From: a virus
Lineage: Duplodnaviria > Heunggongvirae > Uroviricota > Caudoviricetes
Reading direction: 5' to 3' (one strand)
Virus record (IMG/VR): IMGVR_UViG_3300032242_001414
Span: 73,079 to 89,241 of that record
Length of the DNA stretch: 16,163 bases
Shown here in pieces: positions 1 to 16,163 of this stretch. The notes below the pieces were generated by a model. The model did no database searches. It saw only the letters and a list, made by a program, of their open reading frames with translations, and was not told the DNA's origin. The position numbers and the translations under genes are program-made. The first letter of the stretch is position 1; the number at the start of each line of letters is the position of its first letter.

Positions 1-3000
1 TATACATTTACTAATCAAGGTGGTGAGAAAGAAGTTTTACAAGAAGGAAGAGAGTATTTAAAAGTTAGTTTTGATAAAGCAAGTTCAGTTAAAGTTGATG
101 AGGATAGATATGCAGTGACTGCTCCTAATGGACAAGTTACGTATCATAAAACTCAAGAGGCTGCAGATAATGCTGTTGAGGAAATTAATGATAAAATCAA
201 TGACTTAATTAAGTTTAAAGTTATTGGATTAAATAATGATGGTACAGTTAAGGTGGAAGATAGTAATGGTAACATTCAAAATGTTTCTACTGATGAACTA
301 GTTGGATATGAAAGAATTCAAACTGACCAAGAGAAGTTACAGAAGTTTTCTGATGATATAAAAAAAGAACAAGCAGAGATTGAGCTTAACTCTGGTGATG
401 TAGCTACAGGTGATTCATCTGTTGTTGTAAATTTAGATGAGGGTAAGTTAAAAGATGCTAGTATATTATTTGAATCTACAACATCTGAATCTGAGGGAGA
501 GAACTTTGTACCTAAGCCTCATCAGGCACGTACTATTGAATTCTTAAATAATATTGGTGGATTTGCTAACAGAGCTAGAATCAAAGCTATTTTAGTTACT
601 GCTAATCAAGAGGATACTCTTGGATTAACAGGATTAAGTGAAATGCAATTTAGCAAACCTAAAGCTGATGTAGAAAATCTTACAAATGTAGATAAAGGAT
701 TTGTAGCTGCTGTATATGTAGAACAAGATGGTGATAATGTTTACTTTGTAGATAAAGAAGGTAAACGTATTGCTAAGGTGGGTGATAAGATGGATATGAG
801 CAAAGTGGTGTTTAACACTATGCCTACTACAGATTTAAGATATGAAAGTAGTAAATCTCCTAAATACAGAACTGAGCAAAAAGCACAAGCTGAAGCTAAA
901 GCTGCTGGATGGAGAGAAATGAGATCTAAGTTATTTGAAGCACCTGGATATAAAGTGTACAATTTCACAGTGTCTAATGGTATTCCTATCACTGTTCAAA
1001 ATGAAAGAAATAATGTTGCTGGTACATTAGTTCCTCAAAATGTAGTATCTACACAAGAGGGATTGATTCAAGTGTCTAATACAGGATTTATATTCCATAA
1101 AGGAAAACAAGTTAAGGTTCAAGTTGGACATCCTTACATTCGATATAATGATACATTACAAGGTGTAAGAGGTAGAACCTTTACAGCTAAAGAAGCAAAA
1201 GGTGTAGTTGAAGTTTTAAAGAACATCTCTGATGAAGTTAATAATCAATTAGCTGCTGGTAAACCAATCAAAATCAATAGGTTATATTCTACATATTTGC
1301 AGAATGTATTGTATTGGAAAAGTAAGGGAGCCAATGCTGCTAACCAAATCTTTATTAACACTAACACAATGAATCTTGAGTTAGGTAAGGAAAAGTATGA
1401 CCTAACTAAGATTGCTGAATCAGAAGATAAAATAGTTGACCAATTAAAAACTGTGTATCAGAATATTAATAGAGATACACTTACTAAGAAGTTTCATGAT
1501 AAGTTCTTAGAACCACATATTGGTCCTGATGGTAATTTAACTATCAGTGAGTGGGATAACTATCAAACATATTTATTAGCAGATAAGTTTCCTGATGGGT
1601 CTTCTAGATCTATTAGTGAAACTCCTTTGTCTACAAACGTAGCAAAGATTACAGATGCTGTTCCTTATAATTTCAAACAGAAGTATGCTATTCTAGAAGG
1701 AATGGAACTTCCTGAGGTGGTAGTTAAACCTACTGTTCAAACACAAGAAGTAACTGATGTTGTTGGTGGATATAAGTTAGATGGTGTTACAGAAAACATC
1801 TTTGACTTATCTAGTGGACCTGTATTGTTTACAGCTACACAAGATGCAAGTGGTAATACATTTGTTAAAATAGCTGATAATCAAACAGTTGCAGATATTG
1901 CTAAGGATGAAGCTAAGGTTAAACAAATTGTAGATGCTCTAAAAGCTAATGATAGTTTTGATGCAAGTAAAAGTGATGCTGATATAGTTAAGGACTTCCT
2001 TAAGCTTAGAATTGCTGCTGAGATTCAGAAAGAAGCACAAGCTGCTCCTGTAGTTCAGGCAGCTCCTGTTGCTCAAGCTCCTGTAGTTTCTGTTCAAGAA
2101 GATGTGGAAACACCAGAAACAAAAGAAGAATCTATCAATAAATTAATAAAAATATTTGTTCCTGATATAGATAATCCAAATTATGAATTAAATAAGTTTG
2201 ATGAAAATATCATAAATGAAATAAAAAATAACACTGTTGAATTTTTAGATAGAAATATAGATGGTTTAAGAAAAAGGATAGAAGATGATCCACAAAGTCC
2301 AATTATTGATATAAATAAAGATACTTTAAAATATTTTGAAAAAGTAAGAAAAAATTATTCTAATACAAAACTAGCTGCTTCAGAAGGTGGTGTTAAAACA
2401 GACTTAAGCAACTCTAAAGCACCTAAGGATTCTGAATATAGAATGTTAGGTCAAGAGAATGTTAAAGGAATGACAGATGCTGAGATTGAATTATTCAAAG
2501 AATGGCATGCTAAGAATGTTCCTAATATTCCTTTTGAAATATTAGATCGTATCATTACTACACATGATGGTCAAAAGGCTTGGGGTGTGTTTGAAGATGG
2601 TGTAGCTAAATTCTACAAAGCTGGTCAGAGAGGTACAGAATATCATGAGATATTTGAGGGTATATGGAAAGGGTTCTTATCTCAAGAAGAGCAACAAGCT
2701 ATTCTTGATGAGTTCAAAGCTAAGACTGGTAAGTTTAAAGATAGAGAATCTGGTAAGATGTTATTCTATGAAGAAGCTACAGATAAACAAGCTAAGGAAA
2801 GAATAGCTGATGACTTTGCTGATTTCAGACTTGGTAAATTACCAGCTAGAAGTATTGGTGAAAGAATCTTAAACTTCTTTAGAAACATTATTGACTTTGT
2901 TAAATCATTTGTAAACAAACCTTCTAGAAAAGAAGAGTTGTTTAAAGCTATTGATACAGGTAAATATAAAACTGCTACATTATCTGAAGCTGTTAAATCT

Positions 3001-6000
3001 GCAGCTCCTGAATATAAAGCAGCTGAAGGATTGACTCAAGGTCAAACTAATGATATAGTTAAAGATATGACTGCCAGAGTGTTTAGAAACATCTTTGGTA
3101 CAAATAGATCATTATATGAGATTTCTAACTTAACTGCTCCTGAAATATTTGGTGCTATCAAGACTGAATATGCAGAAGAGAATAAGGTGGTTGGAGATAA
3201 AACTTGGTCAGATCTTGTAACTAAAACAAAAGAGTTCTTACGTACATTTAAAATTGAGTTTGATGAGGATAACTTATTAGATATCAATGCAGATAATGTA
3301 ACTAATAGAATGTATGCTGCTGAAGCATTCACTACAGACTGGAAGAAGAATTCTCCATATCCTGTTAAATTGGTTGTAGGTACATTAGTAGAAACTGATG
3401 CTACAAATCAAGTGGATAGTTCTACATTATCTTTACCTAAAGCTGCTGTAACTAATGGTGCTACAAAAGGTTTCTTAAAGTTATTAAACTTCAGTAGAGC
3501 ATTTGCTACAGTGATAGATAAGTTAGCTAACACTACTAAGGTGACTAAGATGGTAGATAAGTTAGTAGACTTAGCTAAGTATGACTCTAACTATGTTAGA
3601 TTGTTCACTCGTCTTAAGGGTGATAGAAACTCAATGGAGATAGACTTTAGCAAGTTTGAACCACATGATTGGAGATTGTTTGTACAATTTTACCAAACAT
3701 TTACAAAACAAAATCCTCAAGCATTAGTACAATATGTTGGTAATGGAGATGTATATACAGCTCCTGCTAATCAATTCACTGTAACTAAGCAAACTAAAGA
3801 GGATTGGGTAAATAATCTTAAAGACTTATCTACAGATCCTAATTCATTTGTTAGATATAATAAGACTCAAAAGACTTACAAGGTTGTATCTACAGAAGGT
3901 GTAGATATTAGTACACCACAGAAGTCAGTAGAGTTTTTAAATAAGATTGGTATCACATATACATTAGATACTTATTTAAAGTTAAAGCCTGAGCAAAGAG
4001 ATGAATTTAATAAAGCTGTAGGTGCTATTCATACATATTTTGGAAAAACAGGAGAGATTGCTACAGTGAGTGGTGAGACATTAGGTATTAATGGTCCATT
4101 AGATACATTAGCTGACTTGTTTGTTAAGGTGGAAAATCCTGTTCAGGATAGTACATTTGCTAACGTAGAAGGTGAGAAGAGACAAGCTTATTCTGAAAAC
4201 AATGCTCCTTCAGTATTTGCAAATGAGGTAAATGAGGCTGAAACAATTGATGAGTTAAAAGAAGCTAGACCTGAGCTTAATGATGTATTCTCTACACATT
4301 CTCAATTCCTTAAAAAGGGAGGATTGTTCTTCAATGCTGCAGGTAAGAGAATCAAATCATTAGTAGTTTCTTACATTGATGGTACAAAGAATACAGATGA
4401 TGATAAGAGTGTAAGCACTACAGGATTGACTCTTGGTAACAGATTTACACAAGAGCTTAACCAAAACTTTAATGGTAACTACTATATATTAAACCCAGCA
4501 GATTCATCTACAGAATGGATGGTTAACTTGGGTAATAATATCAAGTTTGCTGAGGTGAGTGGTGGATTAGCTTGGAATAAAACATATACAATATTTAAAG
4601 GATATTTAAAAGATGATATTGCTTTAGCTCAAAGTGATAGAAGTTATTTATCAAACACTGCTCCTAGAGCTAAGGAGTTACGTTTCTTTAAAGATATTCT
4701 TACAGGTAAGACATTATCCGATGCTAACAACTTGATTATCAATGGTGCTACACAAGAGCAGATTGATGAGTTTATTGATAATAATATTGAGAAGATCAAT
4801 GCTGATGTGAAAGTATTCATTGAAAACAATGTAGCTGAAACTAAAAGGATATTGATGTACAACAATAAGATTGTCAACAATCCTAATGGTACATTGAAAT
4901 ATGAATCTTTAGATAATACATTCAGCACAGCTGAAAGATTAAATAAGAATGCATTAAGTAATGATGATGTTAATGAGATTTTAACATTTGCTAGAATTAA
5001 CTATGTTATCAATAACATAGAAATGCATAAAGCATTATTTGGTGATCCATATCAGTTTGATATTAAGAAAGGTAATTTAGATGAAACTAAGCGTATCAAA
5101 TCATTTTTATCTCCTAGAAGAACTACATTTGATAGCCCTGAGTTTAACTCATTCCATAATCAAGAATATAACAAAGCTAATGGAATAACATTAAATTCTA
5201 CTGACCCTGGATATCATACATTCAAACCATATACAAACACTGTAACTCTTAGAGATGTAGTTCTTGAAAATGGTACTAAAGAATCAGATGCTGCTTCTTA
5301 TATAATGGATGGTACATACAGAGAAGTTAAACTTAGAAATGGTGAGTGGGATTTAAATAGTCCTGCTGAAATATGGCATCAATGGCAAATGGCTTATACA
5401 AGAAATGCATATGCTAATAAAGGAGAATACACTTACACAAATAAAGCTCTTCAAAAGCAAGACGTTGAATTACTTAAAACTCCTGAACCTGAATATGTTA
5501 CAGAGGTAATGAAACCTATTGTATCTGGTAACAAGTATGGTAAGAACCAATTTGATCTTGTATTAGATAAGTTCTCTCAAATGCCTCTATATTATAAAGC
5601 TATTGAAGGAACTAACCTAGAGACTTTATATACTAATATGTGGAAGCAAGGAGTTGGTTATGCTGTATTTGAATCTGGTAGAAAGGTAGGTGCTGAGAAG
5701 TTATATGACTTATATAAAAATGGTGAAGTTAACACTGAAACATTTGATAATATTATTCCTGTAGCTTGGAAGACTTATGGTATTCAAGTGGAGAATAGCT
5801 ATGCAGGAGCTAAAGCACAAACACGTGGTTCTCAGCTTACTAAGTTATCTAGCTTAGATATATTTGATAATGGTGTTGCTACAAGTTCTGAAGCTGCTGC
5901 AGAATATACACGTAATAAAGAAATACTAAATGCATTACATACAGAAGCTTACACTCAACTGTTAGATAAATTAGGTATTGAAGATCTTGGTGATGGATTT

Positions 6001-9000
6001 AATGTAATAGATCCAGTGGCTGTATCTCAAACTCTTGAGTATGAAATGTTAAGAAGAGAGTTATCTGATAATATTAAAGATACAGTACAGCTTGATGAGA
6101 ATGGACAATTTAGAGTTCCATTTGAAGCATCTCCTGCATACGCACAGATTAGAAACATTCTTTACTCTATGGTAGATAAGGCTCTTATTTCTCCTAAGAT
6201 GAATGGTGGTGCTAAGGTGCAGGTTCCTTCAACTCTATGGGAGTCTGGAAAGAGAGACGCTAAACAAGCTAATCCTGTATTGAAGTTCTATACTAAAGAT
6301 AAACCATACATAGAAGTGATGCTTCCTCATTCATTTAAAGATCAGTTTAAAAAAGCTGGATTTAAGTCTGATGAAGAACTATTAGCATATTTAAACAAGC
6401 CTGAGAATGAATCAATTCTTAGAGGTATTGGTTTCCGTATTCCTACACAGGCATTAAGTTCTGCAGAGGTATTTAAAATCAAAGGTTTCTTACCACAATC
6501 TATGGGAGATACAGTTGTTGTACCTTCTGAGATTACTAGCAAAGCAGGATCTGACTTTGATATAGATAAGCTTAATATCTATTTAAAGAATACATATGTT
6601 AACTCTAAAGGTCAATTAAAAGAAGTTCCATTCTTTGGATATGGTGAAGAAGCTAAAGCAGCTATTAAGAAGTTTATATTAAAAGAAGATTTAGAAAGCA
6701 TCTTTGATATTAACGAAAGAACTATAGCAGCTACAGAAGATGATTATGGTACATTAGCAGATAAGTTATATAAACAATCTCTTGAGAATCAATACTTTGA
6801 TAGTCTTGAAAAGTTATTAACTCTTGATGAAAACTATGAAAGATTAATTAATCCTGTATCTGATGGTGGATTAGAAAAGGTTTCTGAAGATTTAGATAAG
6901 CTTAGAGGCACTGATGAAAGCAAGATTAAGAATAGAATTCTTGATGGTAACTACATGACATCATTAAGACATGCATTTGTTACTGCTAAGAAGTGGGTAG
7001 GTATTGGTGCTGTTAATATTACTAATCATTCATTAGCTCAGAAAGGACAAGTATTTCTTGATCCTGCTAAAGTGGCTGCATTAGATAGCTATGAGAAAAA
7101 GTTATTAGGCAATGGTCAAATAGCTCTTCCTCATAACAAATTGACTATTGGTGGTAGAGAAGTAGTATCTTTATCTGGTGTTAAGGATAGAGCAGGTAAA
7201 TATATCTCTGATAACTTATCTGGATTCATCACATCATTTGTGGATGTAGCTAAGAATCCATACATTCTTAAAGTGGTTGGTAGTAACAATGTTATTGGTA
7301 CAGCAATGTTCTTAACAAGAATAGGAAGTCCTGTAAAAACTACAGCATTGTTCTTGAACCAACCTATCATTAAAGAATACTTAAACTACTTAGATAGTAT
7401 TGATTCTAAATCTGTATACAGCAAGAAGAACTTAGATGTAATTAAAGCTAAGTTCCCAACTGATAGAAAGTCAGCTATTGCTGCTAAGATTGAAATGAAG
7501 AATCTTGCTCCTAATATTAAGAACTACTATGCTGGTAAGGCTATAGATAATGCTGAGCAACAAAGAATATTAGCTGAGTTCTTGAAATATCATAAGATGG
7601 CTCAATATGCATTTAAACTTACACAAGCTACTAACTATGACACTACTAAGTTCAGAAGTGCAGAAGCTATGGGTAAGAAGAGAATGAGAACAGAAACAGC
7701 TGAAGATTCAAACATATTTACGTCTGCTAAAGATATATTAAATAATTCATTTATAGGTGAGCAAGCTAACTTAGCTGAGAAGTCTATGAATTCTTTAGGA
7801 GCTATATTAAAACTTGATCAGCTTCAATACTCAGTTATTACTAGTAAGGTCTTAGATAAATATGCAGCTAATGAATACTTAGGTGCTGAGAACTTTGATA
7901 CAATTGCTGCTAAAATTAAGGCATCATTTATTGATTACATCTTCCAAACTAAGACTGATTTAACTGATAGAACAAAAGATTTATTAATTGATCCATATAC
8001 AGCAGTTGCAGGAGAAATAACTAAAGCTAGAAAGGCTAATCCAGATATAGAAATCTTACAACAATTAACTCAAGCTTCTTCTGACAGGGTGGGTGGTGCT
8101 AAGAGTATTAAATTGAAAGCTAATCTTAAAGATGCTTTTGATGAGAACTTGTATACAGATATGATGAGAGAGCTTAGAGATAACCCAGCTACAAATGCTT
8201 TATATAATAAGATTGTAGACTTGGGTATTCTTCAAGGAACATACCAATCAGCTATATCTATTAAGAATATTATTCCTATTGAGGATTATACTAAGAGAGT
8301 GGAGAATGCTATTAGCTCAGCATCTTCTGACTTAAACTTAGATAACTTCAGTAAGTTTGGTGCATTTGAAAGAAACAACTGGAAAGATGAGAATGTATTC
8401 AAGAAGGTAACAGTTGTACCAAGTTTATACAATGAAGGATTTAATGATAATGGAGAATTCATCACTGATATTCAGTTTGAACAATTTCCTACATTAGAAG
8501 GTTTATCTGAAGCAGGAGTTAAGAATGTATTAGTGCTTGACAGATTTGATAACTTTGCTGATGTTGGTTCTGATTACATATTAATTCCTAGAGTGGTAAA
8601 TAATGGTAAGCAAAGAATTGATATCATTGATGGTAAGCCTGTAAATAGTGCTGACTATGCTAGAAGAAAAGCTGCAGGTGATACATCTTTAAATGATGTA
8701 ATGGGCTTCCAGAAAGTTAGATTTGAGAATGGAGAAGAACTAGCTAGGGGTTCTAATGTATACTACAAAGCTATTAATCTTTGGGGAGATGGTCAGTATG
8801 CTACAGAGATGTACAATGATACTAGAAAATCTGTGTTTAATAATGGTACAGTGAAGATAGAAAATGAAATTCCTGATCAAAAAATTATTGATCATGTTAT
8901 GGGAGTAACTGAAGAAGTTGTACCTTTACAAGATCAAGCTGAAGAGATCAAACCAGAAGGATTACCTCCAATTAAAGATAACAACCAAAATAACTGCGGA

Positions 9001-9003
9001 TAA
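1..9003 (+). CDS. Giant virion-type DNA-dependent RNA polymerase polyprotein (crAss-like, phi14:2 gp66-type single-chain beta/beta' fusion) with an N-terminal extension and zincin-like module; 5'-truncated
   Basis: Frame 1 is open from base 1 (YTFTNQGGEKEVLQEGREYLKVSFDKASSVKVDEDRYA precedes the GTG at 115) to TAA 9001-9003. Motifs: GSDFDIDKL (DFDID 6553-6567), GFRIPTQ (R 6436), LFGDP..D..KR (5035-5094), SDAASY (D 5287), MKP (K 5512), DKFSQMPL (K 5569), ESGRKVG (K 5683), FVDVAKNP (7237-7260). DFDID is the established catalytic motif of crAss-like virion RNAPs. Confidence 0.92.
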   Translation, partial: YTFTNQGGEKEVLQEGREYLKVSFDKASSVKVDEDRYAVTAPNGQVTYHKTQEAADNAVEEINDKINDLIKFKVIGLNNDGTVKVEDSNGNIQNVSTDELVGYERIQTDQEKLQKFSDDIKKEQAEIELNSGDVATGDSSVVVNLDEGKLKDASILFESTTSESEGENFVPKPHQARTIEFLNNIGGFANRARIKAILVTANQEDTLGLTGLSEMQFSKPKADVENLTNVDKGFVAAVYVEQDGDNVYFVDKEGKRIAKVGDKMDMSKVVFNTMPTTDLRYESSKSPKYRTEQKAQAEAKAAGWREMRSKLFEAPGYKVYNFTVSNGIPITVQNERNNVAGTLVPQNVVSTQEGLIQVSNTGFIFHKGKQVKVQVGHPYIRYNDTLQGVRGRTFTAKEAKGVVEVLKNISDEVNNQLAAGKPIKINRLYSTYLQNVLYWKSKGANAANQIFINTNTMNLELGKEKYDLTKIAESEDKIVDQLKTVYQNINRDTLTKKFHDKFLEPHIGPDGNLTISEWDNYQTYLLADKFPDGSSRSISETPLSTNVAKITDAVPYNFKQKYAILEGMELPEVVVKPTVQTQEVTDVVGGYKLDGVTENIFDLSSGPVLFTATQDASGNTFVKIADNQTVADIAKDEAKVKQIVDALKANDSFDASKSDADIVKDFLKLRIAAEIQKEAQAAPVVQAAPVAQAPVVSVQEDVETPETKEESINKLIKIFVPDIDNPNYELNKFDENIINEIKNNTVEFLDRNIDGLRKRIEDDPQSPIIDINKDTLKYFEKVRKNYSNTKLAASEGGVKTDLSNSKAPKDSEYRMLGQENVKGMTDAEIELFKEWHAKNVPNIPFEILDRIITTHDGQKAWGVFEDGVAKFYKAGQRGTEYHEIFEGIWKGFLSQEEQQAILDEFKAKTGKFKDRESGKMLFYEEATDKQAKERIADDFADFRLGKLPARSIGERILNFFRNIIDFVKSFVNKPSRKEELFKAIDTGKYKTATLSEAVKSAAPEYKAAEGLTQGQTNDIVKDMTARVFRNIFGTNRSLYEISNLTAPEIFGAIKTEYAEENKVVGDKTWSDLVTKTKEFLRTFKIEFDEDNLLDINADNVTNRMYAAEAFTTDWKKNSPYPVKLVVGTLVETDATNQVDSSTLSLPKAAVTNGATKGFLKLLNFSRAFATVIDKLANTTKVTKMVDKLVDLAKYDSNYVRLFTRLKGDRNSMEIDFSKFEPHDWRLFVQFYQTFTKQNPQALVQYVGNGDVYTAPANQFTVTKQTKEDWVNNLKDLSTDPNSFVRYNKTQKTYKVVSTEGVDISTPQKSVEFLNKIGITYTLDTYLKLKPEQRDEFNKAVGAIHTYFGKTGEIATVSGETLGINGPLDTLADLFVKVENPVQDSTFANVEGEKRQAYSENNAPSVFANEVNEAETIDELKEARPELNDVFSTHSQFLKKGGLFFNAAGKRIKSLVVSYIDGTKNTDDDKSVSTTGLTLGNRFTQELNQNFNGNYYILNPADSSTEWMVNLGNNIKFAEVSGGLAWNKTYTIFKGYLKDDIALAQSDRSYLSNTAPRAKELRFFKDILTGKTLSDANNLIINGATQEQIDEFIDNNIEKINADVKVFIENNVAETKRILMYNNKIVNNPNGTLKYESLDNTFSTAERLNKNALSNDDVNEILTFARINYVINNIEMHKALFGDPYQFDIKKGNLDETKRIKSFLSPRRTTFDSPEFNSFHNQEYNKANGITLNSTDPGYHTFKPYTNTVTLRDVVLENGTKESDAASYIMDGTYREVKLRNGEWDLNSPAEIWHQWQMAYTRNAYANKGEYTYTNKALQKQDVELLKTPEPEYVTEVMKPIVSGNKYGKNQFDLVLDKFSQMPLYYKAIEGTNLETLYTNMWKQGVGYAVFESGRKVGAEKLYDLYKNGEVNTETFDNIIPVAWKTYGIQVENSYAGAKAQTRGSQLTKLSSLDIFDNGVATSSEAAAEYTRNKEILNALHTEAYTQLLDKLGIEDLGDGFNVIDPVAVSQTLEYEMLRRELSDNIKDTVQLDENGQFRVPFEASPAYAQIRNILYSMVDKALISPKMNGGAKVQVPSTLWESGKRDAKQANPVLKFYTKDKPYIEVMLPHSFKDQFKKAGFKSDEELLAYLNKPENESILRGIGFRIPTQALSSAEVFKIKGFLPQSMGDTVVVPSEITSKAGSDFDIDKLNIYLKNTYVNSKGQLKEVPFFGYGEEAKAAIKKFILKEDLESIFDINERTIAATEDDYGTLADKLYKQSLENQYFDSLEKLLTLDENYERLINPVSDGGLEKVSEDLDKLRGTDESKIKNRILDGNYMTSLRHAFVTAKKWVGIGAVNITNHSLAQKGQVFLDPAKVAALDSYEKKLLGNGQIALPHNKLTIGGREVVSLSGVKDRAGKYISDNLSGFITSFVDVAKNPYILKVVGSNNVIGTAMFLTRIGSPVKTTALFLNQPIIKEYLNYLDSIDSKSVYSKKNLDVIKAKFPTDRKSAIAAKIEMKNLAPNIKNYYAGKAIDNAEQQRILAEFLKYHKMAQYAFKLTQATNYDTTKFRSAEAMGKKRMRTETAEDSNIFTSAKDILNNSFIGEQANLAEKSMNSLGAILKLDQLQYSVITSKVLDKYAANEYLGAENFDTIAAKIKASFIDYIFQTKTDLTDRTKDLLIDPYTAVAGEITKARKANPDIEILQQLTQASSDRVGGAKSIKLKANLKDAFDENLYTDMMRELRDNPATNALYNKIVDLGILQGTYQSAISIKNIIPIEDYTKRVENAISSASSDLNLDNFSKFGAFERNNWKDENVFKKVTVVPSLYNEGFNDNGEFITDIQFEQFPTLEGLSEAGVKNVLVLDRFDNFADVGSDYILIPRVVNNGKQRIDIIDGKPVNSADYARRKAAGDTSLNDVMGFQKVRFENGEELARGSNVYYKAINLWGDGQYATEMYNDTRKSVFNNGTVKIENEIPDQKIIDHVMGVTEEVVPLQDQAEEIKPEGLPPIKDNNQNNCG
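2038..2088 (+). repeat. Short Ala/Pro/Val/Gln linker repeat (QAAPVV-QAAPVA-QAPVV) within the RNAP polyprotein
   Basis: Three imperfect copies read directly from the translation; composition typical of a flexible inter-domain linker. Confidence 0.7.
2434..3018 (+). other. Zincin-like (metallopeptidase-fold) module with degenerate motif HEIFE
   Basis: Layout W-G-x-F strand, then T-E-Y-H-E-I-F-E helix (2644-2658), then KERIADDF helix, then ILNFFRNIIDFVKSF helix. This matches the zincin-like domains known from crAss-like cargo and polyvalent proteins; the second His of HExxH is Glu. Boundaries approximate. Confidence 0.65.
5035..7260 (+). other. RNAP catalytic core (two double-psi beta-barrels) including the Mg-binding DFDID loop
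   Basis: Beta-like barrel residues (D 5287, K 5512/5569/5683) are followed in the same chain by beta'-like RxP (6436-6444) and DxDxD (6553-6567), 39 codons apart. Boundaries approximate. Confidence 0.8.
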
Positions 9004-9005
9004 TG
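9001..9005 (+). promoter_or_regulatory. TAATG stop/start overlap (translational coupling of ORF1 and ORF2)
   Basis: TAA 9001-9003 shares its last A with ATG 9003-9005. No properly spaced Shine-Dalgarno; A at -3. Confidence 0.8.
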
Positions 9006-12000
9006 GGCAAATGTTTATTAGATATCAAATATGACATCATTGATGAAGCTAGAGAACAGGCTTTAGGCTATGAAGGTTTCAAACAAGCTCTTGAGCAAAG
9101 AGATATGCTTGAGATAGCTGATGCACCTAAAGCTGCTGAATCTGCTAGAAAAGTTAATCAACAATTTAAAGAAGATGTAATCACTCCTAGTTTTTCTAGT
9201 AAGAATCATTACTATATTAGCCCATCAGAAAACTTAACTCAACAATACTTTGATCAATATAATAAAGCTCTAGAAAACGAAGCTTCTGCATTAACAGAAG
9301 CTGAAAAAGAAAGAGGTGGATATACAGAAGAAGATAGAGGTGAGTTCTTTCAGAAGGAAGGTAGTAAAGCATCTTCTGCATCTCCTGCTAGTATAGCTAT
9401 TATTAAAGACTTCTTAAAGAGAATAGGTGTTGATACTCAGACACTTAAGGCTATTAATATTAATGGTGAAAAGCAAGATGCTAATGGTGTTGCTAACATC
9501 ATGCAGAATCTTATACAGGTTGTAGAAGGTAAAGAAGCTACTGCACTTCCTGAGGAAGCAATGCACTTTGCTGTAGAAATCATACAACAGAATGATCCTA
9601 AGTTATTCAATCAACTATTGAAGGAGATTAATAACTATGCTATACTTAATGATGTGTTTAAGACCTATGGTAATGATAAGAACTATCAAACCAAAGAAGG
9701 TAAGCCTGATGTTATTAAGTTAAAGAAAGAAGCTATTGGTAAGGTGTTAGCTGAGACTATCATTAATAAAGCTGAAGGAACATTAGAAAATCCTGAGAAC
9801 TTAGCTAAGGTGGAAAGCTGGTGGCAGAAGATCATCAATGCTATCAAGAACTTGTTTGTTAAAACAGGATTTGATGAAGCTGCTATTAAGGTGATGTCTG
9901 GTGAGTTAGAAGGTACAGCTGCAGACATTAGAGCTCAAGAAGGAGATGTTTACTTACAGAAAACTTCTCAACAACAAGTGTATGATAAGCTTGTAGAGAT
10001 TCAAAATAAGATTGAGAAGAGAGATGATGGTTATTATGTAGATGGTAAGAAAGTGCCTAAGAGAGTTACAGAACTTGTTAAAGGTTGGAATAATGACTTA
10101 ATGCAAGCTAATGAACTTACTAAATCTGAATACAAGAAACTTGTAGATGAGGATAAAGCATTGAATGGTACTAACGGTCATGCTGATATTGAGCATGCAT
10201 TTAGTTTATTTGTAGATAAAGATGGTAACTTAAGAGATGATCAATTAGATGATTCAGGATATGTATCTCAATTAGATCCTAACAATAGAGACTATTATGA
10301 ACTGCTTAGAGATAACTTAAAGGAAAGATTAAAAACATTCCCTAGAGGAACTAAGTTTATGTCTGAGGTTAAGGTGTATGATGCTAAAAGAGGTATAGCT
10401 GGTACAATAGATTTCTTAGCTATCACTCCTGATGGAAAAGTGAATATCCTTGACTGGAAGTTTGTTGATATTGATATAAATAGAAATAAAGATCTACCTT
10501 GGTATTATGTAAATTCTTGGAGAAAGCAAATGGAACAATACAAGCTTATCATCCAAAACAACTATGGAGTTAATCTAAAAGACTTTGATCAAACAAGAAT
10601 GATTCCTATTAGGGCTAGATATGAACAAATGAATCTTACTACTAAAGAACTTCCTAAAATTTTAGGAGTTGAGATAGGAGATGTTAATGTTGAGAATATC
10701 AAGCAAGATTACTTAGTTCCATTAGGACTAGAAACAGAGACTACAGGAAACAAGAAGATTGATGCATTATTATCTAAACTTAATGCTGAATATAAAAGAC
10801 TTGCTGAAAAAGGTGTAACTCCTTCTGAAAGACTTAGTAAGAATGAGCAATTAAATATTCTATTTAAGAGTATTAGAGAGTTACAAATGAGAGGTAACCT
10901 TGGACCATTGTTAGTTCAAGCTAAGGTGTTGAATAGACAATTGTCTAATCTTATCACCAAGTACAATGAGCAGTTCAAAGGAAAAGATCCTAAGTCTTTC
11001 TCTGAGAAGGAGATTAATGATATGGTTAGAGAAATCAACCGTGCTGAAGAAACTATCACTATATATACAAACTTAGATACAGATCTTAAGTTCTTGTTCC
11101 AAGGAGAATTAGATGATGAAGAGAAAAAGCTTAGAGAAGATTTAAGAAACACTGTAGATGATGCTAGAGACTTACAAGTGCAGTTGAGAGAACTATCTGA
11201 TGAGTTTGCTGAAGATGTAATTGCTAGTAGCGTAGATGTAAAGAACTTACTATCTCCTGAGAAGATTATCAAAGGATTAGGTAAATGGTTTGGTTCTACA
11301 TCAATGTTTCAAAGTAAGGCTATCCAAACATTATATAAGAAAGCTAACAAAGCTTTTGCTTATGCTGGATATGATACACTTGATGAGACTAGAAAGCTAC
11401 AGGAGTATAAGAAGAATTATGATGAGTGGGCTAAGAGTAAAGGTTTAAATGCTAAGAACTACTTTGATATCATCAAGAAGAAAGATAGTAATGAGCTTAT
11501 TGATCAATACAGTCCTGAATTCTTTAATACATTAAGACAAAAGATTAATGATAAAGATGTAGAATGGATTAAGGATAATATAGATGTTGAAGCATACAAG
11601 AAAGCTCTTGAAGAAAAAATAGCTGAAGAGCAATTGAGAATTGAAAACAAGATGGCTGGTAGAGTGGGTACTGATATAGAGAACTTAGAAGCAGAGGCTG
11701 ATGAGATTTCTCAAATGAAAAGAAAGTATGACCTCTCTAATAAAACAAGTGCTGGTTGGTTCCAATATAACTTAATTAATAAACATCCTAACACTAGTTG
11801 GGAAACTGCTCAATGGAAAGAGTTACAAAAAACACCAGCTGCTAAAGCATTCTATAATTACATTATAGAAAAGAATAATGAATATGCTGATCTTGGATAT
11901 ATCAATAAAGGAGAAGCTAGAACATTCCTTCCATTTGTTAGAAAAGGGGTGTTAGAAAAGATAGTGTTTGGTGGAAAGATTTCTGTAGGAGAACAATTCC

Positions 12001-13928
12001 TTAGAAGTATTTCTATTGATGAAGGTGATACAGGATTTGGTAAGTTTGACCCTATTACAGGACAACCTATAAATACCATCCCTAAATATTTCACAAGAGA
12101 AATTGAGGGAGAAGTTAGTACAGACTTATTTAGAACAATGGCTTTATATAATGAAATGGCAATTAAGTATAAATATGTAAGTGATATTGAGGAACAAGCT
12201 CAAGCTTTATTAAATACAGAAAGAAACAAAAAAGCAATTGCTACATCTGTATTTGGTAAAACTCAAAGAGATGCTGCAGGAGATTTAGTGTATACACCAA
12301 ACAATAGTGAAAACACTAAGCTTGTTGATGATATGATTAAGTCCATCATTTATGGACAGAAGTATATATCAAGTGAAAGCTTTGACCAGATATTGGGTAA
12401 GTTTGGTAAGTTTGGAGAGAAGATTAATAATAAATTAGGACGTAAGATATTCCCAGAGAACTTAGAAGGAAGACAAGTTAGTTTTAATAAGGTGATTACT
12501 AATATTAATAACCAGTATCAGATGATAGCACTAGGAGGTAACTTACTATCTGCTGCATCTAACTACTTTGGTGGTAACGCTCAATCTGTAATCAACTCTG
12601 GTAAGTATTTTACCAAAACTGATTATGCACGTAATCAAGCTTGGATACTTCCAGGTAAGATGATTGGTGGAGATAAGATGAAATACATTGCAGCATTAGA
12701 ATATTTCTTACCTCTTAATGAAAACTATAATAAAGAAATAGCTAAAACATTATCTGTCAGCACCTTAACTCAAGAAAAAATTCAAGACTTCTTAATGATT
12801 CTTATGAGAAAGTCTGATTTGAATGTACAGACATGTAACTTCTATAGCTTCTTAGACAACTCTATTATACAAAACGGAGAGATTGTAAATGCTAGAGAGT
12901 ATTTAAGAAGTACAGATGAGTACAAAGATATGTTTGCTGGTACAAAAGAAGATAGAAAAGCTAGAAGTGATAAGTTTGAAAAGGATGTTAAAGAGCTTGT
13001 GAAAGATAAAGGTGTAATGAAATTAGCACAACTAGTTGATGGTAAATTAGTTATACCTGGTATTGAAAGAAAATCAGAATCAGTTGTTACACTAAGAAGA
13101 AATGTACAAGCTTTAACTAAAGCTGCATTGGGTAACTTAGGACCAGATGATATCCGTCCTATCAACCAAACTATATATGGGTCATCATTTATGATGTTTA
13201 AGAACTGGATTCCTAGACTGGTAGATGTTAGACTTGGTAATATGAAATACAATTCAGCATCTGATGCGTATGAATGGGGTAGAATGCGTATGATGTATAG
13301 AGTGATATCAGATGATTTATTAGGATCTTTAGATAGTTTTCAAAGTGCTATTAGAGGTAATGATGAGAAGTGGATTGCTCAAATGAGAAACTTATATGAA
13401 AAGAAATCAGCAGATTATAAAGCTGATACAGGTAAGGATCTTGAGATGACTGAGGGAGAATTCTTAAACTTAGTTAATCAAAATGCTAAATCTCAAATGA
13501 TAGATTTACTTTTCTTTGCTAGCATGTGGGCCCTTGTTGTTGGATTAAAAGCAGGACAACCTGATAAAGATGAAGATCCAAAAGTGAAGAATAAGTACAA
13601 ATTTATGATGAAAGCTGTTGATAAGTTTAGAGATGAGATTACTTATTTCTATGATCCAACTAGTATAGTTAGTCTTACATCTACAGGTATATTCCCAGCT
13701 ATGGCATCTATAAATAACTTCAGAAAGGTGATTGTAAACTCTGGTAAAGAGTTATTCTACTTATATGAAGGAGATGAGAAAAATGTTAAGAAGAACTTCG
13801 TACTTAAATATGCAATGAAAACATTTCCTGTAACAGCTCAAATAGGAGCATATCTTCCAGCATTCTTCCCAGAGGTAGCTAAAGATCTTGGAATTAAAGC
13901 ACAATCAGAATCAGGATACAGTAGATAA
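9003..13928 (+). CDS. Large putative virion cargo/ejection protein (1641 aa): degenerate zincin-like module, PD-(D/E)XK nuclease domain, long helical C-terminal region
   Basis: Uninterrupted ORF coupled to the RNAP gene. Contains LPEEAMH (EEAMH 9552-9566), nuclease motifs at 10167-10541, FMMFKNWIP in the C-terminal part and a hydrophobic segment at 13497-13547. Virion-cargo status is inferred from size and position next to the virion RNAP. Confidence 0.8.
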   Translation: MGKCLLDIKYDIIDEAREQALGYEGFKQALEQRDMLEIADAPKAAESARKVNQQFKEDVITPSFSSKNHYYISPSENLTQQYFDQYNKALENEASALTEAEKERGGYTEEDRGEFFQKEGSKASSASPASIAIIKDFLKRIGVDTQTLKAININGEKQDANGVANIMQNLIQVVEGKEATALPEEAMHFAVEIIQQNDPKLFNQLLKEINNYAILNDVFKTYGNDKNYQTKEGKPDVIKLKKEAIGKVLAETIINKAEGTLENPENLAKVESWWQKIINAIKNLFVKTGFDEAAIKVMSGELEGTAADIRAQEGDVYLQKTSQQQVYDKLVEIQNKIEKRDDGYYVDGKKVPKRVTELVKGWNNDLMQANELTKSEYKKLVDEDKALNGTNGHADIEHAFSLFVDKDGNLRDDQLDDSGYVSQLDPNNRDYYELLRDNLKERLKTFPRGTKFMSEVKVYDAKRGIAGTIDFLAITPDGKVNILDWKFVDIDINRNKDLPWYYVNSWRKQMEQYKLIIQNNYGVNLKDFDQTRMIPIRARYEQMNLTTKELPKILGVEIGDVNVENIKQDYLVPLGLETETTGNKKIDALLSKLNAEYKRLAEKGVTPSERLSKNEQLNILFKSIRELQMRGNLGPLLVQAKVLNRQLSNLITKYNEQFKGKDPKSFSEKEINDMVREINRAEETITIYTNLDTDLKFLFQGELDDEEKKLREDLRNTVDDARDLQVQLRELSDEFAEDVIASSVDVKNLLSPEKIIKGLGKWFGSTSMFQSKAIQTLYKKANKAFAYAGYDTLDETRKLQEYKKNYDEWAKSKGLNAKNYFDIIKKKDSNELIDQYSPEFFNTLRQKINDKDVEWIKDNIDVEAYKKALEEKIAEEQLRIENKMAGRVGTDIENLEAEADEISQMKRKYDLSNKTSAGWFQYNLINKHPNTSWETAQWKELQKTPAAKAFYNYIIEKNNEYADLGYINKGEARTFLPFVRKGVLEKIVFGGKISVGEQFLRSISIDEGDTGFGKFDPITGQPINTIPKYFTREIEGEVSTDLFRTMALYNEMAIKYKYVSDIEEQAQALLNTERNKKAIATSVFGKTQRDAAGDLVYTPNNSENTKLVDDMIKSIIYGQKYISSESFDQILGKFGKFGEKINNKLGRKIFPENLEGRQVSFNKVITNINNQYQMIALGGNLLSAASNYFGGNAQSVINSGKYFTKTDYARNQAWILPGKMIGGDKMKYIAALEYFLPLNENYNKEIAKTLSVSTLTQEKIQDFLMILMRKSDLNVQTCNFYSFLDNSIIQNGEIVNAREYLRSTDEYKDMFAGTKEDRKARSDKFEKDVKELVKDKGVMKLAQLVDGKLVIPGIERKSESVVTLRRNVQALTKAALGNLGPDDIRPINQTIYGSSFMMFKNWIPRLVDVRLGNMKYNSASDAYEWGRMRMMYRVISDDLLGSLDSFQSAIRGNDEKWIAQMRNLYEKKSADYKADTGKDLEMTEGEFLNLVNQNAKSQMIDLLFFASMWALVVGLKAGQPDKDEDPKVKNKYKFMMKAVDKFRDEITYFYDPTSIVSLTSTGIFPAMASINNFRKVIVNSGKELFYLYEGDEKNVKKNFVLKYAMKTFPVTAQIGAYLPAFFPEVAKDLGIKAQSESGYSR
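9345..9962 (+). other. Second zincin-like module with degenerate motif EEAMH
   Basis: NGVANI strand, LPEEAMHF helix, KKEAIGKVLAE helix and WWQKIINAIKNLF helix, the same layout as the ORF1 module; the first His of HExxH is Glu. Boundaries approximate. Confidence 0.6.
10167..10620 (+). other. PD-(D/E)XK (RecB/Cas4-like superfamily) nuclease domain
   Basis: GTxGH (10167-10181), SEVK (E 10365), IAGTID (D 10410), ILDWK (DWK 10452-10460), QMEQY (10527-10541): the canonical motif order of this fold. Confidence 0.8.
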
Positions 13929-13949: not shown

Positions 13950-16163
13950 ATGGAAATACTTTGCCAAGGAGAACCTTGTCCAATTATACTGAGTAGTACC
14001 TGCGTTATATACGAAGGTCCTAACCTTGTTTATACAGGTATCAATACTAATGATAACTTAGAAATAGCATTACAAAAAATTGATGCTAGACTTGCTCATG
14101 TGAATGGCACATCAGGAACATCTGGTACTTCTGGAACATCTGGAAATGATGGAACCAGTGGTAGCTCAGGAACTTCTGGCACATCAGGAATAAGTGGTTC
14201 TAGTGGAACATCAGGAACCTCTGGTGAACGTGGAGCTCATGGAACAAATGGAACATCAGGAATTAATGGTACTAGTGGCACAGGAGGAACTAGTGGTACT
14301 AGTGGTTATACAGGAACAAGTGGTACAAGCGGAACTAGTGGAAGTAGAGGGTCAAGTGGTACAGCAGGTACATCTGGTACATCAGGTGTAAATGGTACAT
14401 CTGGTACTAGTGGAAGTAGTTCAACATCAGGATCTTCAGGAACAACTGGAACTAGTGGAACAAGTGGCACATCAGGCACAACTGGAATTGATGGTACATC
14501 AGGAACTAGTGGATCAAGTGGAAGTTCTTCAACTTCTGGAACAAGTGGAACCACTGGTACGTCAGGTACTTCAGCAACTAGTGGTAGTTCAGGTACAAGT
14601 GGTACTAATGGAACAGGTGGGACAAGTGGAACAAGTGGTACTTCTGCTACAAGTGGAACATCTGGAACTAGTGGTAGTACAGGTACTAGTGGAACAAGTG
14701 CTACATCTGGAAGCTCTGGAACTACTGGTTCAAGTGGATCTAGTGGTACATCAGGAACTAGCGGTACCAATGGTACAGGTGGTACTAGTGGAACAAGCGG
14801 AACTAGAGGCACTAGTGGAACAAGTGGAGTATCAGGTACATCAGGAACTACAGGTACATCTGGAACCTCTGGAACATCAGGAACTACTGGTTTGGGTGGT
14901 AATAGTATATTGTTTATTAGGAATAATGCTCCTATTAGTTTTGTAAACGGAAATTTCAATGTTTCATCATCTAGTACATTACAATTTGGAACTATTTTAC
15001 AATTATATCAAAATGATTTAAATGGTAATAGCATTTCAAATTGGGTAAACAATATTAGCGTAGGTTCAATTATTCAAATATTATATTATTCAGCTGGTAC
15101 ATCTGGTTCTAGTGGAGCTAATGTATATGCAACATATATAGCTACTAGCACTGCTGTTCCTAGTCTTGGTGTATATTCAATATCAGTAAGTTTTCTTAAT
15201 GGTAATGCTTCTTATACACTTGCTAATGGACAATATTGGTCAATATCTTATGTAAATCAAGGAACCTCTGGAACTGATGGTACAAGTGGAACTGATGGTA
15301 CAGGTGGAACTTCTGGAACTTCTGGCACTAGAGGTACATCAGGGACTAGTGGAACCACAGGAACAAGCGGTTCTTCTGGAACAACTGGTGCATCAGGTAC
15401 AAGTGGAACTACAGGTACTAGTGGAACTACTGGAACTAGTGGTACATCAGGTACAACTGGAACTAGTGGTACAACTGGAACTAGTGGTACCACAGGAACT
15501 AGTGGAACATCTGGTACCTCAGTATCAGTGAGTGGTACAACAAATACAGTGGTTAAATTCACAAGTTCAACTACCATAGGTAATAGTTCTATACAAGATT
15601 TAACAACAGGTGTATTAGTAAATAATAGTGTTACAGCATCAGGTGCTGTTGCTAGAGGTGTAAGTTTCACTCCTACATTAACTGCTGCTGCTAATAGTGA
15701 TGTATTATCAGGGTTGTATATAAATCCTACTTTTACTAATGGTGCTTTTACAGGGGTAAGTAACTATGCGTTGAATGTGAATGGGCAAAGCACTTTTTCA
15801 AACCTATTAACATTAAATTTTGCAGATGCTAATATTAAACTACAAGGAACAACAAGTCAGTATTTATTACAAATAGTAGATGCAAATAATAGATTTAGAA
15901 TTTTTGATAATGGTTCTAACCAAATAGAAAGATTTTCAATATCTTCTACTGGAAACGTAACTATTGGTCCAACTCTTTTAGGAGGTTCTAAACTACAAGT
16001 GAATGGTAATGCTGCTATTGGTTATTCATCATCTACCGCAGCACCTACTAATGGATTAGCGGTTGCAGCAAATGCAACAATAGGTACTTCAAGTAATACT
16101 GCATCATCTTCATTTGTTGTAAATAGTAGTGGAACTGCACCAAATTCTTGGGTAAGTGCCTTG
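13950..16163 (+). CDS. Tail fibre / collagen-register adhesin-like protein; 3'-truncated (738 codons in window); absent from the ORF track
   Basis: Manual translation from ATG 13950 (MEILCQGEPCPIILSSTCVIYEGPNLVYTGINTNDNLEIALQKIDARLAHVNGTSGTSG...) finds no stop before the window end (...SSGTAPNSWVSAL). It has two Gly-X-Y blocks and fibre-type motifs GTTNTVVKFTSSTTIGNSSI and ERFSISSTGNVTIG. Confidence 0.88.
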   Translation, partial: MEILCQGEPCPIILSSTCVIYEGPNLVYTGINTNDNLEIALQKIDARLAHVNGTSGTSGTSGTSGNDGTSGSSGTSGTSGISGSSGTSGTSGERGAHGTNGTSGINGTSGTGGTSGTSGYTGTSGTSGTSGSRGSSGTAGTSGTSGVNGTSGTSGSSSTSGSSGTTGTSGTSGTSGTTGIDGTSGTSGSSGSSSTSGTSGTTGTSGTSATSGSSGTSGTNGTGGTSGTSGTSATSGTSGTSGSTGTSGTSATSGSSGTTGSSGSSGTSGTSGTNGTGGTSGTSGTRGTSGTSGVSGTSGTTGTSGTSGTSGTTGLGGNSILFIRNNAPISFVNGNFNVSSSSTLQFGTILQLYQNDLNGNSISNWVNNISVGSIIQILYYSAGTSGSSGANVYATYIATSTAVPSLGVYSISVSFLNGNASYTLANGQYWSISYVNQGTSGTDGTSGTDGTGGTSGTSGTRGTSGTSGTTGTSGSSGTTGASGTSGTTGTSGTTGTSGTSGTTGTSGTTGTSGTTGTSGTSGTSVSVSGTTNTVVKFTSSTTIGNSSIQDLTTGVLVNNSVTASGAVARGVSFTPTLTAAANSDVLSGLYINPTFTNGAFTGVSNYALNVNGQSTFSNLLTLNFADANIKLQGTTSQYLLQIVDANNRFRIFDNGSNQIERFSISSTGNVTIGPTLLGGSKLQVNGNAAIGYSSSTAAPTNGLAVAANATIGTSSNTASSSFVVNSSGTAPNSWVSAL
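14106..14897 (+). repeat. Gly-X-Y triplet block 1 (88 triplets, consensus Gly-Thr-Ser)
   Basis: Unbroken 9-nt register. 83 of 88 triplets start with Gly, 2 with Ser and 3 with Ala; no Pro; synonymous codons highly varied. Confidence 0.95.
15261..15521 (+). repeat. Gly-X-Y triplet block 2 (29 triplets, GTS/GTT)
   Basis: All 29 triplets start with Gly; no Pro. Confidence 0.95.

Follow-up and report, generated by a model that had tools for sequence, protein, structure and literature searches.

Facing terminal cysteines of neighbouring RNA polymerase cargo proteins in a crAss-like phage and a probable head-to-tail disulfide link

Crassviruses are the most abundant phages of the human gut. The window described here, i.e., the whole 16,163-nucleotide (nt) stretch that was analysed, covers bases 73079-89241 of the 89,241-bp IMG/VR virus record IMGVR_UViG_3300032242_001414. 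In the list of open reading frames (ORFs), three were found in the window, A, B, and C, and all are co-directional. ORF A encodes a giant virion RNA polymerase (RNAP), and ORF B encodes a second large cargo protein directly after it. The products of A and B are almost free of cysteine, except that one cysteine lies at the C-terminal end of A and one at the N-terminal end of B. The best reading of this arrangement is a head-to-tail intermolecular disulfide, A Cys3897 to B Cys4, which would tether the ejected cargo proteins, and its probability is put at roughly 0.6.

The closest described case is a cyanopodophage, Anabaena phage A-4L (A4). In electron cryo-microscopy of A4, gp27 is seen to insert its C-terminal helix into gp26, where a disulfide between Cys1715 and Cys5 stabilises it (PNAS 2025, PMC12002296). 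The A-4L record gives gp27 as 1717 residues with its sole cysteine at 1715 and gp26 as 1114 residues with its sole cysteine at 5. The upstream giant of A4 thus has its sole cysteine two residues from its C-terminal end, and the product of the next gene has its sole cysteine near its start. Gene order and adjacency match those of the window, and gp27 and gp26 are both capsid-internal and destined for ejection, as A and B most likely are. The window pair has the same signature, i.e., facing terminal cysteines in proteins that are otherwise (almost) cysteine-free. However, there is no RNA polymerase in the A4 pair, and A4 has a single link instead of a chain of up to three. The bond was described as a staple of the folded pentameric pre-ejectosome ring, and no general rule was stated (PMC12002296). 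Homology of A or B to gp27 or gp26 was not detected, i.e., all BLAST E values were above 0.4 and the hidden Markov model (HMM) of the B family gave no match at E<=10. Therefore, the parallel is one of analogy and not of family.

The closest relatives by homology are the cargo proteins of phages phi14:2 (g067-g066-g065) and crAss001 (gp47-gp50-gp49), which are homologous virion cargo and follow the same terminal-cysteine rule. Whether the three parts, S1, S2, and S3, are separate proteins or fused differs among phages (bioRxiv 10.1101/2020.03.07.982082). In phi14:2 and crAss001, S1 and S2 are separate and two links would be made, whereas in the window S1 and S2 are fused and one link would remain. 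In crAss001, gp47, gp49, and gp50 were assigned to the capsid as cargo of the virion, and partial unfolding is needed for their exit through the tail (PMC10172136). Packing and mutual interactions probably determine the order in which the proteins are extruded, and the cargo is not visible in the crAss001 structure (PMC10172136). The crAss001 virions contain many structural disulfides, including inter-protein ones in the tail and at the portal vertex, but the cysteines of gp47, gp49, and gp50 are not mentioned in that structural paper (PMC10172136). Neither cysteine nor disulfide is mentioned in the phi14:2 RNAP preprint (bioRxiv 10.1101/2020.03.07.982082). In the literature searched (full text), only the crAss001 structural paper came up on this subject, and no description of an end-to-end link in Crassvirales was found. 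The sequence-only reading of this DNA had called such a link not known to be described; because the A4 disulfide is a published precedent (PMC12002296), this holds only for Crassvirales.

Domain content and order are the same in the single giant S1-S2-S3 polyproteins of some crAss-like phages, and the split form with its cysteines would mimic this one-chain state. The fused forms differ in that they have no cysteine, none of the first ~110-123 residues of B, and none of the last ~20 residues of A. Cleavage of the polyprotein into its parts was proposed by the authors of bioRxiv 10.1101/2020.03.07.982082. Cysteine suppression has been reported in the ejection proteins of N4-like phages, i.e., N4 gp50 and DEV gp71-gp73 (PMC11445570). 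There too, compared with the proteome, cysteine is nearly absent from the giant virion RNAPs and the proteins ejected with them. However, the N4-like virion RNAP is one chain with zero cysteines, there are no terminal pairs, and the polymerases are unrelated.

The features of the window are collected in Table 1. The C-terminal tail of A reads ...EEIKPEGLPPIKDNNQNNCG. From the codon-position base composition, ~36 cysteines were expected in A and ~20 in B. If the 3 cysteines in the 5539 residues of A and B were placed at random, one in the last five residues of A and one in the first five of B would be seen with P ~5e-6. The sequence-only reading had counted a single cysteine among the 3000 in-window residues of A, two in the 1641 residues of B, and a TAATG between the genes. 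All of these counts were reproduced, and the cysteine of A was still the only one in its full length of 3898 residues. Most relatives of A keep one further, interior cysteine; an isoleucine is in its place here, and A is therefore left with one.

Table 1. Positions of the features in the window
Feature	Position	Strand	Remark
ORF A	1..9003	+	open at 5' end; 3000 residues in window, 3898 in whole record
Catalytic motif DFDID (DFDxD type)	6553..6567	+	motif search; residue 3083 of full-length A
Ile codon of A	6310..6312	+	sole interior position where most relatives of A keep Cys (FYTK..PYCEVMLPHWF)
Pro-rich acidic C-terminal tail of A	8941..9000	+	20 residues, ends NNCG
Sole Cys codon of A, TGC	8995..8997	+	penultimate residue; 2999 of 3000 in window, 3897 of full length
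TAATG, overlap of A stop and B start	9001..9005	+	
ORF B	9003..13928	+	1641 residues
Cys4 codon of B, TGT	9012..9014	+	
N-terminal head domain of B	9015..9317	+	small alpha/beta; residues 5-105, directly after Cys4
Cys1278 codon of B, TGT	12834..12836	+	sporadic, not conserved; most homologues without interior Cys
ORF C	13950..16163	+	open at 3' end

The whole record shows A and B as the last two of five large ORFs in a row (1479, 1079, 895, 3898, and 1641 residues). The block has 3 cysteines in 8992 residues, against 0.86% cysteine across all ORFs of the genome. Thus, it has the mark of cysteine-suppressed phage ejection proteins, i.e., a cysteine frequency far below that of the phage proteome. 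The N-terminal end of A (MATSNDKLIE) and the three upstream cargo-like proteins have zero cysteines. The idea that the genes upstream might show the same terminal pattern was not borne out, because the pattern is not continued there in this genome. The three cysteine-free upstream ORFs are located at G000:C1:59912-70383 and probably encode the rest of the ejected cargo, as their position resembles that of crAss001 gp45/gp46. The 1652-residue ORF preceding them has 26 cysteines.

A matched the virion RNAPs of phi14:2 (g066, E 2e-32) and crAss001 (tblastn). Its DFDID motif is of the DFDxD type of crAss-like RNAPs (bioRxiv 10.1101/2020.03.07.982082). Residues of A up to ~1950 were mapped by BLAST to crAss001 gp47, phi14:2 g067, and Dulem virus S1, and the later part to g066/gp50; gp47 itself aligned with residues 101-717 and 1755-1814 of full-length A. 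Therefore, A is an S1+S2 fusion, and its S1/S2 seam, near window nt ~3150, has no cysteine. B matched crAss001 gp49 (E 6e-10 in BLAST, E 2.7e-28 with the B-family HMM), although phi14:2 g065 itself was not detected by this HMM. By these sequence matches, B is S3, i.e., a gp49-like RNAP-associated cargo protein. The S1 (gp47/g067-like) and S3 (gp49/g065-like) partners are thus encoded next to the RNAP, as in the Crassvirales cargo module. The presence of the RNAP cargo in the virion is based on proteomics in phi14:2 and crAss001 and on homology here, and A and B are most likely carried in the particle and injected.

The facing cysteines were followed in the homologues of A and B. A search with the C-terminal domain of A gave 120 cluster representatives with 42-88% identity, and a cysteine lies 0-5 residues from the C-terminal end in 120/120. 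These ends include 56 distinct 8-residue tails of varied sequence class, and the cysteine is present in every one. For B, an exhaustive phmmer search with residues 1-1200 found 773 homologues. The best 150 representatives (50%-identity clusters) were scored, and 134 of these are full-length with an M start. A cysteine was found within the first eight residues in 121 of the 134 (77 at position 3 and 39 at position 4), and it is the only cysteine of the protein in 108 of the 150 listed representatives. The outer ends served as an internal negative control: no cysteine was found in the first eight residues of A homologues (0/101 N-terminal ends), and one was found in the last eight residues of B homologues in 1/134. 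In the interior, cysteine made up 0.0148% of residues in B homologues and 0.0142% in A homologues (235 homologues). The per-residue frequency in the first eight positions of B is several hundred-fold above this interior value.

Pairing was examined in 30 IMG/VR loci with a B homologue of 27-61% identity. Both facing cysteines were present in all 27 loci that have a separate upstream RNAP protein, the first 0-5 residues from the C-terminal end and the second at position 3 or 4 of B. One locus is an exception in position, with the B cysteine at 7 after a likely over-extended TTG start. Among relatives, the A stop and the B start range from overlapping by 4 nt to lying 16 nt apart, and no Rfam family was matched anywhere in the window. 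Thus, the rule acts on proteins and not on nucleotides. Because the pattern is kept in hundreds of divergent homologues, chance is excluded. The two sequence tests that might have refuted the link, i.e., terminal enrichment over the interior and co-occurrence of both cysteines, came out in its favour and therefore support it. The joint loss in fusions described below and the A4 precedent point the same way, and the chemistry of the bond is inferred.

The rule was also found in named members of Crassvirales. In phi14:2, the only cysteine of g067 (1797 residues) is its last residue, C1797, those of g066 (2180 residues) are solely at 3 and 2179, and that of g065 (1421 residues) is solely at 3. 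In crAss001, gp47 (2341 residues) has its cysteine solely at 2339, gp50 (2412 residues) has cysteines at 5, 1334, and 2404, and gp49 has its cysteine solely at 5. The crAss001 gp47 gene is on the opposite strand from gp50 and gp49 and the pattern is kept, so the rule acts at the protein level. Dulem virus 41, with three separate proteins, and the Suoliviridae cr118_1 and cr52_1, with S1 and S2 fused, obey the rule as well. Where S1 and S2 are separate (phi14:2, crAss001, and Dulem virus 41), their junction has a cysteine pair, whereas the fused seam in A has none. The cr52_1 cargo genes (L037, NC_055888.1) contain many in-frame stops under table 11, including 37 in the RNAP ORF, which is consistent with stop-codon reassignment.

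The phage cr108_1 gave a control for boundaries. The protein preceding its B homologue ends in ...NLCK and the B homologue starts with MANVC, but the break between the two annotated RNAP coding sequences has no cysteine pair. A group I intron (RF00028, 80 bits, E 2e-20) was found at that break (L031:18375-18693, MT774385.1 about 58374-58692). Therefore, the break is not a protein boundary, and gp_22606 and gp_22607 are one protein.

Natural fusions, fragments, and mis-called starts account for nearly all exceptions. Some of the B exceptions are N-terminally truncated fragments. The start was mis-called in P0057, P0063, and P0136, where x-C comes directly after an internal Met, and P0140 is explained by its cluster mate P0271, which starts with MAC. 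A longer-leader class (P0113, P0133, and P0147) has WG[ST]DCG with the cysteine at 9-10. The natural fusions have zero cysteines. P0042 is S1+S2+S3 in 5544 residues, P0032 is the C-terminal part of S2 with S3, P0061, P0077, and P0094 are part of S1 with S3, and the locus L003 (the same as L034) has an ORF of at least 4929 residues. P0071 (2699 residues) also has zero cysteines and begins with a homologue of the C-terminal domain of the RNAP protein; L041, its split relative at 56% identity, has ...NCIKPS and then MAC.... In the fusions mapped on B (all except P0071) and in L003/L034, the joint is at B residue ~110-134 and the last ~20 residues of A are dropped. Both cysteines are thus lost together when the chains become one.

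Some of these fusions are found on large bacterial contigs. L003 is located at NZ_FOJF01000001.1:3728675-3753462 in Chitinophaga sp. YR573, on a 4.83 Mb contig, and was the only locus found in the genome contig scan with P0077. P0042 is WP_168765770.1 of Chitinophaga polysaccharea, on a 518 kb contig. The viral contig scans with P0061 and P0140 gave no match. The large contigs suggest that the fused cysteine-free polyproteins belong to crAss-like elements that either are integrated in Chitinophaga chromosomes or were co-assembled with them.

The N-terminal head domain of B is another part that depends on the state of the chain. In an AlphaFold2 model of B(1-500), made from 25 aligned sequences (mean pLDDT 78.8), residues 1-4 are coil, residues 5-22 form a helix, and a compact alpha/beta domain extends to ~105. 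The block-mean pLDDT is 82-94 for residues 1-90 and below 50 for the linker at 105-112, and the conserved core of B starts near residue 124. The head domain is missing from all natural fusions, and its role may be docking, which only separate chains would require. A Foldseek search of the 1-500 model against PDB gave no match at E<=0.001; weak, non-significant matches to anthrax lethal factor were seen in the same search.

In the proposed mechanism, the C-terminal cysteine of A and the N-terminal cysteine of B would form an intermolecular disulfide. If the initiator Met, which precedes a small second residue, is cleaved off, Cys4 of B would become position 3. The head domain of B would dock non-covalently and probably pre-position both ends. 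The product would be a nearly linear chain of 5539 residues, equivalent to the single polyprotein of relatives. Such a link would fix 1:1 co-packaging and keep the cargo complex together in the virion. Each cysteine is only a few residues away from its chain end, so passage of the joined product through the tail channel would still be possible, in a set order. In the cytoplasm, host thiol reductants would then separate the parts. A and B belong to a cysteine-purged block of proteins, and their counterparts in cultured relatives are packed in the capsid and must pass the tail at least partly unfolded. The cysteine is kept terminal despite many unrelated tail and head classes, which suggests a topological need, i.e., a product that can be threaded. 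A phage thioredoxin is encoded in the replication module on the minus strand (G000:C1:22971-23294; PF00085, 73.5 bits), with a CxxC at residues 15 and 18.

Several points weigh against a disulfide. Assembly occurs in the reducing cytoplasm and many hosts are anaerobes, so the formation of the bond and its timing are in doubt. A search of the genome for an Erv/ALR sulfhydryl oxidase gave no match, but the control genomes were silent too, so this negative carries no weight. For crassviruses, the bond is proposed from the sequence pattern and the A4 analogy; A/B and gp27/gp26 share no detectable homology, and the A4 bond staples a folded ring and does not show threading (PMC12002296). The RNAP cargo is also unresolved in the crAss001 maps (PMC10172136). 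The full-length B homologue P0120 (1814 residues) has no cysteine and is the only unexplained exception, and in L014 the A gene is in two ORFs without a cysteine pair. In that locus (L014:4930-5001), the RNAP ORFs are in different frames and 68 nt apart, just after an A-run, and no Rfam intron was matched at the break. It may be a frameshift or sequencing indel and not a true protein boundary.

The doubt about the cytoplasm would be met if a metal ion (e.g., Zn or Fe) or a small moiety bridged both thiols, giving the same tether by other chemistry. The pairing rule and the loss on fusion fit any bridge, a metal bridge could form in the reducing compartment of assembly, and acidic residues are common beside the C-terminal cysteine (KECY, NEC, and DDC tails). 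However, each side has one cysteine with no conserved His or second cysteine nearby, the tails are of many unrelated classes, and in A4, the one structure solved for such a signature, the bond is a disulfide. This explanation is considered unlikely. It is also rather improbable that the cysteines are not paired with each other but are modified or anchor each protein separately to a third virion component, such as the portal, the inner face of the capsid, or other cargo. The many inter-protein disulfides of the crAss001 tail and portal vertex would suit such anchors, and the capsid partners of gp47, gp49, and gp50 are unresolved in crAss001. But the cysteines are restricted to the facing ends, as the near-empty outer ends show, and separate anchors would not predict the joint loss of both on fusion. 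In this genome, moreover, the remaining cargo proteins offer no cysteine as a partner.

A zincin-like protease domain was proposed for gp65 orthologues (bioRxiv 10.1101/2020.03.07.982082), and together with the weak lethal factor matches it raises the idea that the N-terminal cysteine of B is a latency "cysteine switch" or a catalytic residue and that the cysteine of A is unrelated. However, B has no HExxH and only 5 His, so the zincin prediction is not evident in B. A switch would also leave unexplained the C-terminal cysteine of A, the A4 pair, and the S1/S2 junction pairs of phi14:2, crAss001, and Dulem 41. It was rejected on the missing HExxH and the S1/S2 pairs, and its chance is very small. 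Least credible of all, and refuted by the homologue comparisons, is that chance, relaxed selection at chain ends, a gene-calling artefact, or a nucleotide signal for translational coupling made the pattern. Protein ends tolerate change, and A and B share a TAATG overlap. But the outer ends lack cysteine, the random-placement probability is low, and the cysteine is kept through so many distinct tails. A nucleotide signal is further opposed by the variable spacing and by crAss001 gp47 and gp50 being on opposite strands. Recoding or read-through from A into B was likewise rejected, as frames and spacings differ among relatives.

Further features of the cargo genes and their neighbour were noted. 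No match of A was found in PHROGs or Pfam, and B gave only a weak nuclease match and one sub-threshold match. The nuclease match, to the PHROG "exonuclease" family phrog_298 (E 8e-5), covers B residues ~319-526 (window ~9960-10580). The family-conserved motifs GH.D.E and ...IDL...DWKF of B resemble a PD-(D/E)XK nuclease core, and the near-invariant E184, E185, and H188 lie upstream of them. Several of the A homologues P0191, P0199, P0202, P0207-P0209, P0217, P0246, P0251, and P0253-P0257 have extra Pfam domains that are not in the A of the window, i.e., NADAR/YbiA-like PF08719, 2OG-Fe(II) oxygenase PF13532, and a PIF1/UvrD-like helicase. These enzymes may be delivered along with the cargo. ORF C encodes a tail-fibre protein with collagen repeats (Pfam Collagen, E 1e-39; PHROG tail fibre). 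In its 738 residues, the only cysteines are C5, C10, and C18 (codons 13962-13964, 13977-13979, and 14001-14003). In many related loci, the gene that follows B encodes the same triad at its N-terminal end (M...C....PCP.......C), frequently together with C28 and C49, and the triad is absent from crAss001 gp22. It may attach the fibre to the tail hub through a disulfide or a metal.

How crassviruses pack and inject RNA polymerase and partner proteins of about 0.7 MDa in total is the question that the proposed head-to-tail disulfide addresses. A wider view is possible but tentative: the split cargo of tailed phages might be daisy-chained by end disulfides, leave the capsid as one ordered thread, and be cut by host reduction. 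The disulfides would then be a reversible covalent substitute for a polyprotein, acquired independently in Crassvirales and A4, and a general principle of ejection. For annotators, the facing cysteines give a sequence rule that marks the members of the cargo chain and separates true protein boundaries from intron or frameshift breaks. A conserved end-to-end link is a concrete hypothesis that is cheaply testable in the cultured phages phi14:2 and crAss001. If true, the link explains why the cargo genes are split and fused freely, why other cysteines are purged from their products, and why the same signature is found in an unrelated podophage.

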